Source: Escherichia phage OliverMaurmann_Bas86. Taken from it: 64,000 nt of DNA. Positions within the stretch are counted from its first letter, which is position 1. Each line of letters opens with the position of its first letter. Below the pieces are notes generated by a model. It was not told the DNA's origin and did no database searches. It worked only from the letters and a program-made list of their open reading frames with translations. The DNA is taken from sequence record PQ850622.1, one strand, 5' to 3'. Below are positions 50,038 through 50,466 of the stretch, one piece after another. A program made the translations under genes and the position numbers.

Positions 50038-50466
50038 TTAAACAACAAATTGGAACGCTTCGTATCCAAACTTGTATGAGAAGTCATGCTTGAATTTCAC
50101 TACACGACCACGATCACGGAAAGATTTCAGACGACTAATAAAGCCAGCCATCGGCTCAGGGTCAATAGGGCTACGAATCTTCATAGCTACAGAGTGCAGC
50201 TTGAAGCGTTTACCAGTGCTACAGGCCATCATCACATACTCCATACGAGTAGTCCAGATGTTGAGCACCATGCTTGTTTTCTCCGCTGACCAACCAGTCT
50301 TGCGGGCGATTTCTTTATGGACATTAAGCTCCAAAGGAAGAGGGAATTGCTTGTTGAATGAAGCCGGATATAGCTTGACCAGAAGGTCAATGTTTTCTTT
50401 ATACGTTAAGTAAGCCAATTTCTTGCTTACGTTAGGGAATTTCCCAGACATTTTTTGAAGCTCCAA
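50038..50466 (-). CDS. ProQ/FinO-domain-like RNA-binding protein candidate
   Basis: KLAYLTYKENIDLLVKLYPASFNKQFPLPLELNVHKEIARKTGWSAEKTSMVLNIWTTRMEYV resembles the ProQ/FinO pattern. Confidence 0.35.
   Translation of the reverse strand: MELQKMSGKFPNVSKKLAYLTYKENIDLLVKLYPASFNKQFPLPLELNVHKEIARKTGWSAEKTSMVLNIWTTRMEYVMMACSTGKRFKLHSVAMKIRSPIDPEPMAGFISRLKSFRDRGRVVKFKHDFSYKFGYEAFQFVV

Follow-up and report, generated by a model that had tools for sequence, protein, structure and literature searches.

A minimal ProQ/FinO-domain protein of Escherichia phage OliverMaurmann_Bas86 with a conserved putative 3'-end pocket and without the stem-binding residues of ProQ

Does a small leftward gene of Escherichia phage OliverMaurmann_Bas86 (PQ850622.1) encode a ProQ/FinO-type RNA-binding protein, and, if it does, which parts of the known RNA-binding surface are kept and what might such a protein do during infection? 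FinO/ProQ proteins are one of the three major sRNA-associated RNA-binding protein classes in Gram-negative bacteria, and their plasmid and chromosomal roles are well studied, unlike those of the members found in virulent phages. The gene lies in the 64,000-nucleotide stretch of DNA analysed here, which we refer to as the window, and the original prediction, made from a residue pattern, was that the N-terminal 90 residues of its product resemble the ProQ/FinO domain and that the protein could bind structured RNAs of phage or host.

The mechanical ORF spans 50038..50466 on the minus strand and would encode 142 amino acids from a TTG codon (50464-50466) that overlaps a GGAG sequence. Translation almost certainly begins at the ATG at 50451, for a protein of 137 rather than 142 amino acids, since this GGAG is placed 9 nt upstream of that ATG and the orthologues in phages SU7 and AnnaHegner_Bas87, both annotated as 137 amino acids, begin at the same ATG. 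In SU7 a ribosome-binding site is annotated at the position equivalent to the GGAG.

50038..50451 (-): coding sequence of the ProQ/FinO-domain protein, 137 amino acids plus a TAA stop, MSGKFPNV...FQFVV
50461..50464 (-): Shine-Dalgarno sequence GGAG, 9 nt upstream of the ATG at 50451, read from the sequence

The protein matches Bas87_0089 at 100% identity and SU7_91 at 97.8%, and its gene differs from that of SU7 by 11 synonymous and 3 non-synonymous codon changes. Among 15 orthologues V44I and V88I are the sole variants within residues 7-101, the other variation being at both termini. Judged by its sequence, the ORF is a real gene under purifying selection. Its 137-aa product is strongly basic (pI 10.0, 24 K+R versus 11 D+E, net charge +13), with the basic charge focused in the N-terminal tail, the hairpin, and the C-terminal helices.

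PF04352 (ProQ/FinO) was the single credible Pfam match to this protein, at E=1e-5 over residues 18-87. A search against this profile had been named as a check on the original prediction, and the match was found as expected, but at 25.9 bits the single sequence scores below the gathering cut-off of 27. A 98%-identical protein (P0001) has a precomputed match to PF04352.19. The NCBIfam search of the protein gave no meaningful match, PHROGs places it in phrog_18901, which is labelled 'unknown function', and phmmer with the single sequence against PDB sequences returned only a chance match at E=1.3, so that a family profile was needed. A word-indexed search of 5.8 billion proteins recovered the protein's own 90% cluster and nothing else, and an exhaustive search of representatives recovered 43 relatives at E<=1e-3, 39 of which were used for the homologue alignment and profile. 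These proteins, which form a clade of phage-type homologues about 25-40% identical overall, all match PF04352 at E<=0.01 (39 of 39, best 1.7e-20).

Compared with the PDB, the 39-homologue profile recovers every solved FinO domain, with the N-terminal domain of E. coli ProQ first at 1.9e-14, followed by RocC (5e-12), FinO (7.5e-10), Lpp1663 (4.5e-9), and NMB1681 (2.3e-6), and the remaining match, a RecQ fragment at E=0.55, is not significant. Profile alignment with hhalign against full-length E. coli ProQ gave a probability of 98.1% and E=9e-14, pairing residues 13-113 with ProQ 6-107, which is the FinO domain only. These comparisons bear out the call made originally and confirm that the gene encodes a ProQ/FinO-type fold homologous to the FinO domain. 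The residue pattern from which that call was made fits in most of its positions, with L24 and L27, P29, F32, P39-L40 (the 'PL'), W66, and Y72 all present; its 'FP' is in fact Y28-P29 and its 'G' is N43.

The AlphaFold2 model computed from the 39-homologue alignment (pLDDT 91.5, pTM 0.85) has helices at residues 10-27, 44-52, 56-66, 70-79, 98-110, and 114-128 and a beta-hairpin at 81-83/93-95. When this model was searched against the PDB with Foldseek, the best 26 matches were all to RocC, FinO, NMB1681, or Lpp1663, each with a probability of 1.00, and the next match had an E of about 0.8. Approximately 98 residues of the model superpose on solved FinO domains, and the phage protein is predicted to contain the FinO-domain fold of a helical bundle with a beta-hairpin. 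The domain is N-terminal as first proposed, but it is longer than 90 residues, extending from about 10 to 113 before one extra C-terminal helix.

50113..50424 (-): FinO/ProQ domain core, residues 10-113, in which four helices are followed by a beta-hairpin that carries an insertion of three residues and then by a fifth helix
50041..50112 (-): C-terminal extension, residues 114-137, with a basic amphipathic helix (114-128) and a short tail

The C-terminal extension is outside the canonical FinO domain and is common to many, though not all, of the phage-type homologues. The protein is a 'minimal' ProQ/FinO protein, in that it consists of a FinO domain and a short basic C-terminal helix without the linker or the Tudor-like domain of ProQ.

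The window comes from a virulent, Suseptimavirus-type phage. Around the gene it shares 96-97% identity with Escherichia phage AnnaHegner_Bas87 and 92-94% with SU7, ECBP2, EK010, and phages like them, and these relatives are phiEco32-like podophages of the subfamily Gordonclarkvirinae, genus Suseptimavirus. Long structural genes occupy the plus strand at 0-17.4 kb, and the minus strand carries nearly all genes between 17.5 and 61.2 kb. In phiEco32-like phages the leftward block holds the middle genes and then, further right, a diverse cluster of small early genes, which are transcribed by the host sigma70 holoenzyme and later shut off by gp79 (PMC8948821, PMC12276001). The ProQ/FinO-like gene is on the leftward strand among small genes without assigned function, at the position of phiEco32 genes 91-100, and from this position we presume it to be of the early class. 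Its neighbours had no Pfam match and matched only PHROGs of unknown function. Six small genes, of which it is the fourth, appear to form one transcription unit that extends from a structured intergenic region (51152-51427) to the following terminator, which probably ends the unit.

49312..49329 (-): intrinsic-terminator-like hairpin, GGCTCTCTTATGAGAGTC then CTTTTTT, from the terminator scan

SU7 has a terminator annotated at the equivalent place, after the two small genes downstream. An exact-match scan found no gp36-type middle/late promoter motif near the ProQ/FinO-like gene. Exact copies of the phiEco32 motif, TAATGTATA, occur only at 12908(+), 22828(-), and 22899(+), and these three sites are located where middle/late promoters would be expected. 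The lack of a nearby motif fits early expression of the gene and is not proof of it.

Terminator-like hairpins are enriched between 47 and 62 kb, where 28 were seen versus 11.1 +/- 3.4 in shuffled sequence, and 21 of the 28 are on the minus (coding) strand. Four are clustered in 55396-55624, and predicted terminators of the region include 53579-53600, 55396-55415, and 56883-56910. Matches resembling sigma70 promoters are depleted in 47000-62000 (17 versus 33.7), with strong ones at 61328, 59103, and 58779 (-), and a tRNA-Arg(TCT) gene is found among the early genes at 52393-52470 (-). Three proteins of the same operon, of 84, 87, and 83 aa (50897-51151, 50630-50893, and 49526-49777, all on the minus strand), appear to be paralogous on the basis of PHROG cross-matches (phrog_7832, 12612, and 6570) and one 17-nt DNA repeat present in all three. 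At about 50637, between the ORFs 50630..50893 and 50521..50637, approximately 270 nt are missing relative to Bas87 and close relatives; these encode an 85-aa hydrophobic protein (Bas87_0091), and the deletion is flanked by the short repeats GATCAGTGA and ACTCAGTGA.

Rfam searches at the gathering threshold and at E<=1 returned the tRNA-Arg only, and no dedicated cis-antisense or other partner RNA was identified. A terminator-like hairpin is located antisense to the 5' part of the FinO-like coding sequence at 50375-50400 (+), with the hairpin itself at 50375-50390 (TTGACCAGAAGGTCAA then TGTTTTCTTT). The plus strand upstream of it showed no promoter-like site, and the occurrence of the hairpin within the coding sequence is probably due to chance.

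Two structured non-coding regions flank the unit. The upstream element (51195-51427, minus strand, ~230 nt) is conserved in 151 phage records, which include all Gordonclarkvirinae (~76% identity in Kuravirus) and the unrelated N4-like Gamaleyavirus (G7C, Bp4, ECBP1, pSb-1, and others, at 68-80%), where nothing is annotated at its position. It has a folding z of -3.7, no Rfam match, compensatory changes in 8 of 35 consensus pairs, mainly in the first and last hairpins (GGGAGG...CCTCCC), and two AGATCT palindromes. It is a candidate RNA leader, sRNA, or DNA-level site. Searching IMG/VR by pattern for the conserved intergenic block gave only 6 loci, on contigs of phage-genome size. The downstream stretch (49300-49525, minus strand, 226 nt) follows the last gene of the operon, has a z of -4.1, and ends in an intrinsic terminator, and part of it (~49297-49474) matches, at 70% identity, a segment of Salmonella phage 7-11 that is annotated as 'terminator'. 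The exact 10-mer TCAACTAACC and a similar hairpin are common to the downstream stretch and the upstream element (51365-51374). Since these two structured regions are also found in Kuravirus and in N4-like Gamaleyavirus without the gene, they cannot be tied to the FinO-like gene.

The distribution of the gene itself is patchy. Using tblastn, we found it in 73 phage records, 21 of which are orthologues at >=95% identity and all Suseptimavirus-type; the others are below 60% identity and belong to unrelated virulent phages, including Salmonella 7-11-like phages (Grimontviridae), Erwinia Ea21-4-like phages (Ounavirinae), Aeromonas LAh phages (Lahexavirus), Shewanella KASIA, and others. In at least five unrelated lineages of virulent phages, homologues occupy early or host-takeover regions. 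Of 161 records matching the surrounding region only 21 cover it fully, and phiEco32 and most relatives keep the flanks without the gene, the equivalent interval in phiEco32 being genes 91-100. Because most relatives lack it, the ProQ/FinO-like gene is dispensable for the phage group overall. No relative of the phage protein was found by tblastn at E<=1e-3 among 72,556 PLSDB plasmids, which argues that the phage clade is not a recent import of plasmid FinO or FopA.

Five members of the clade (P0014, P0015, P0018, P0027, and P0030) form a subgroup with an added conserved C-terminal domain of ~100 aa, characterised by the motif GNHPF...TS.VV and without a Pfam match at E<=0.01; an example is 2483-3187 in Salmonella phage 7-11 (L003). 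Genes of NAD salvage (nicotinamide phosphoribosyltransferase and PRPP synthetase) lie close to the FinO-like gene in 7-11 and the Erwinia Ea21-4-like phages, and phage 7-11 has a second FinO-fold protein, G0X575.

Phages are known from reviews and genome papers to carry FinO/ProQ proteins (PMC9977716, PMC8541194). In UniProt/UniRef the 98%-identical orthologues of SU7, PAS59, and other Suseptimavirus phages are named 'ProQ/FinO domain-containing protein', and some homologues from virulent phages are labelled 'ProQ RNA chaperone' or 'sRNA-binding protein'. The domain call itself is correct and not new, as automatic annotation of 98%-identical proteins already has it. Our literature search found no functional study and no demonstration of RNA binding for any virulent-phage FinO homologue. 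What is added here is a clade-wide loss of the ProQ stem-binding residues beside a strictly conserved 3'-end pocket.

The crystal structure of RocC with RocR and mutagenesis of ProQ have defined two RNA-binding elements in FinO domains (PMC9674577, PMC10168233). The first is a 3'-terminal-nucleotide pocket made of an absolutely conserved Tyr and a highly conserved Arg (Y87/R97 in RocC, Y70/R80 in ProQ), a Thr, and the backbone near a nearly invariant Gly, whose beta-turn contacts the 3'-OH; together these bury the 3'-OH terminal nucleotide of an RNA ending in a terminator hairpin (PMC9674577, PMC10168233); the Tyr is also structurally important (PMC9674577). The second is the Ser-capped N-terminus of a helix, which binds consecutive phosphates of the hairpin stem and is aided by basic residues (PMC9674577, PMC10168233). 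ProQ R58 was essential for all seven RNAs assayed, K54 and R62 had moderate effects, replacement of the turn glycine (G37A) was deleterious, and K35 and R69 had variable effects on binding (PMC10168233). RocC R75 is conserved as Arg in ~80% of cases (PMC9674577). Taking residue equivalences from the hhalign register against E. coli ProQ, we obtained the following correspondence.

ProQ Y70 (3'-nucleotide pocket): phage Y72, kept
ProQ R80 (3'-nucleotide pocket): phage R82, kept
ProQ T65 (pocket Thr): phage T67, kept
ProQ S53 (helix N-cap, RocC S70): phage S55, kept
ProQ G37 (turn glycine, RocC G52): phage N43, not kept
ProQ K54 (stem contact): phage A56, not kept
ProQ R58 (stem contact, essential): phage S60, not kept
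ProQ R62 (stem contact): phage N64, not kept
ProQ K35 (variable effect): phage E41, not kept
ProQ R69 (variable effect): phage E71, not kept

On the DNA these positions correspond to three short segments.

50206..50238 (-): codons of Y72 (50236-50238) to R82 (50206-50208), the 3'-terminal-nucleotide pair by hhalign
50260..50289 (-): start of helix 3, with S55 as N-cap and A56, S60, and N64 at the positions of ProQ K54, R58, and R62
50323..50325 (-): N43, at the near-universal turn glycine

All 39 homologues and all 15 orthologues have Y72 and R82. This invariance of the Tyr/Arg pair across 25-40% identity would be hard to explain otherwise, and we infer that the 3'-end pocket is still in use. 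The helix-3 residues follow a different pattern. All three basic residues are kept in 0/39 members of the clade and none is kept in 16/39, the position equivalent to R58 is basic in 6/39, and at the helix 3 N-terminus, which binds phosphates in RocC, the phage clade commonly has acidic residues. S55, A56, S60, and N64 are identical in 15/15 orthologues. The aligned homologues thus present the loss of the helix-3 stem-contact residues as a trait of the whole phage-type clade and not of one protein. At the N-cap the clade has Ser (16), Thr (13), Asp (4), or Pro (3), and at the turn position its 39 members have Gly (34), Asn (4), or His (1), with N43 fixed in 15/15 orthologues.

Other residues are conserved within the clade itself. 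W66 and R69 are invariant among the 39 homologues and E71 is nearly so, and Y17 shows clade-specific conservation as well. The R69-x-E71-Y72 motif adjoins the pocket and is characteristic of the phage-type clade, and R69 aligns adjacent to RocC R83, a pocket-lining residue. Given this motif and the missing helix-3 basic residues, binding would be expected to lean more on the 3' tail, the terminal nucleotide, and the basic extensions at both ends of the protein than on the canonical stem grip. The grip on the stem must differ from that of ProQ; it is possibly helped by the clade-invariant R69, and the basic extensions (K4, K10, K11, and R107-K127) may contribute.

FinO domains bind the base of terminator hairpins together with the 3'-OH tail, keep 3' exonucleases and polyadenylation away from RNAs, and in some cases promote RNA pairing (PMC9674577, PMC10168233). 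A further study describes ProQ as shielding mRNAs by blocking poly(A) polymerase (PMC12086684). By analogy, the explanation we lean towards, with slightly more confidence than doubt, is that early in infection the phage protein binds and protects the 3' ends of RNAs, and that these are most likely the ends formed by intrinsic terminators on phage early transcripts. Like host ProQ, the phage protein would shield these RNAs against 3'-to-5' exonucleases and polyadenylation, in its case by capping the 3' end. Phage early transcripts would be the most economical targets, terminator-like hairpins being plentiful in the region. Such protection would be most useful once a gp79 homologue shuts off sigma70-dependent transcription, when early mRNAs could no longer be replaced; a gp79 homologue is reported in all phiEco32-like phages and was not located in this window. 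Contrary to this model, R58, K54, R62, the turn Gly, K35, and R69 of ProQ are all replaced in the phage protein, and the acidic residues at the start of helix 3 in the clade and the absence of the gene from most relatives also count against it.

The same fold and pocket could also serve a host-directed function, in which the pocket competes with host ProQ, and perhaps with Hfq, for host small RNAs. The outcome could be a disruption of host post-transcriptional control, or a stabilisation of labile antitoxin RNAs such that the shut-off of transcription triggers no toxin-based abortive infection. Many type I antitoxin sRNAs are ProQ ligands, SibA and SibB are antitoxin sRNAs of this type, and a review of FinO/ProQ proteins places toxin-antitoxin loci in the ProQ regulon. 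SibA and SibB were among the seven ProQ ligands assayed (PMC10168233), and phiEco32-type phages silence sigma70-dependent transcription via gp79 (PMC12276001). The accessory nature of the gene and its patchy occurrence across unrelated virulent phages are typical of host-interaction and counter-defence genes. However, the case is inferential throughout, and the altered helix-3 surface argues against simple mimicry of ProQ specificity, so that we consider a host-directed role unlikely.

We are equally sceptical of a repurposed FinO fold, which would have given up canonical terminator recognition and would act through another surface, for example by non-specific nucleic-acid binding through the basic termini or by protein-protein contact with a host RNA-decay or translation factor. 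The six replaced ProQ positions and the clade-wide absence of the full helix-3 basic set agree with such a change, and W66, R69, E71, and Y17, together with the extra C-terminal helix, point to a distinct functional surface. Against this, the invariance of Y72 and R82 is difficult to account for if the 3'-nucleotide pocket has fallen out of use, even though the Tyr has a structural role as well, and the Asn at the turn is the usual substitute for Gly in tight turns.

That the protein is not a FinO domain at all, its likeness being due to chance or to another small helical family (a winged-helix DUF7343-like regulator or a ribosomal protein L31-like protein), would agree with the sub-threshold Pfam score, the lack of a phmmer match, and weak matches to DUF7343 (E=0.003) and L31 (E=0.002-0.07), but it is scarcely credible, since profile, profile-profile, and two independent structure comparisons are all significant for FinO domains alone and GntR-type winged-helix chains reach only E ~1 in Foldseek. 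As Pfam/NCBIfam assignments, DUF7343 and ribosomal protein L31 were rejected, both being far under the cut-offs and without structural support.

Returning to 3'-end binding early in infection, a broader conjecture, which we hold tentatively and think rather doubtful in its full form, is that the phage-type FinO clade, defined by R-x-E-Y, no basic stripe on helix 3, and short basic extensions, is a distinct variant that reads the 3'-terminal nucleotide and tail over the stem. It would be deployed early, either to preserve the phage's own early mRNAs once transcription has been shut off or against RNA-based host immunity, for instance by stabilising antitoxin RNAs. If this were true, the clade would provide the first FinO-domain protein shown to act in lytic infection.

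The loss of stem-binding residues in the clade poses a testable question, namely what a FinO domain minimally needs for RNA binding. The gene is a tractable entry point, as it belongs to an E. coli phage of a well-characterised group with a defined mechanism of transcription shut-off, its closest relative is in the BASEL collection, and host ProQ is available for comparison. In practical terms, PHROG 18901 and GenBank 'hypothetical protein' entries can now be annotated.

Among known systems, plasmid FinO (FinO-FinP/traJ) and FopA (FopA-Inc/repZ) act with a dedicated adjacent cis-antisense RNA, and none was found at the phage gene. The FinO domain of Legionella pneumophila RocC, solved with the RocR terminator (PDB 7RGU), has R75, K71, and G52 where the phage protein has S60, A56, and N43, and the R75D change, at the position of phage S60, costs RocC more than 100-fold in affinity. 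RocC also differs from the phage protein in having one dedicated sRNA partner and a long C-terminal region. The minimal ProQ of Neisseria meningitidis, NMB1681 (PDB 3MW6), is ~19% identical, chromosomal, and a global RNA binder; the phage protein differs from it in the missing helix-3 basic residues and turn glycine and in an extra C-terminal helix.

Salmonella 7-11 G0X555, the 'ProQ' of Erwinia Ea21-4-type phages, the 'putative RNA chaperone' of Aeromonas LAh phages, and Shewanella KASIA_p031 belong to the same phage-type clade at 28-41% identity. The KASIA gene is in an early region, as is presumed of the gene studied here, whereas the 7-11-type proteins differ in their extra C-terminal domain and their NAD-salvage neighbours. 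[quoted passage not shown] Full-length enterobacterial ProQ (~230 aa) has in addition a basic linker and a Tudor-like C-terminal domain, both absent from the 137-aa phage protein. Since ProQ is the host's own FinO-domain protein, the two would coexist in the infected cell.
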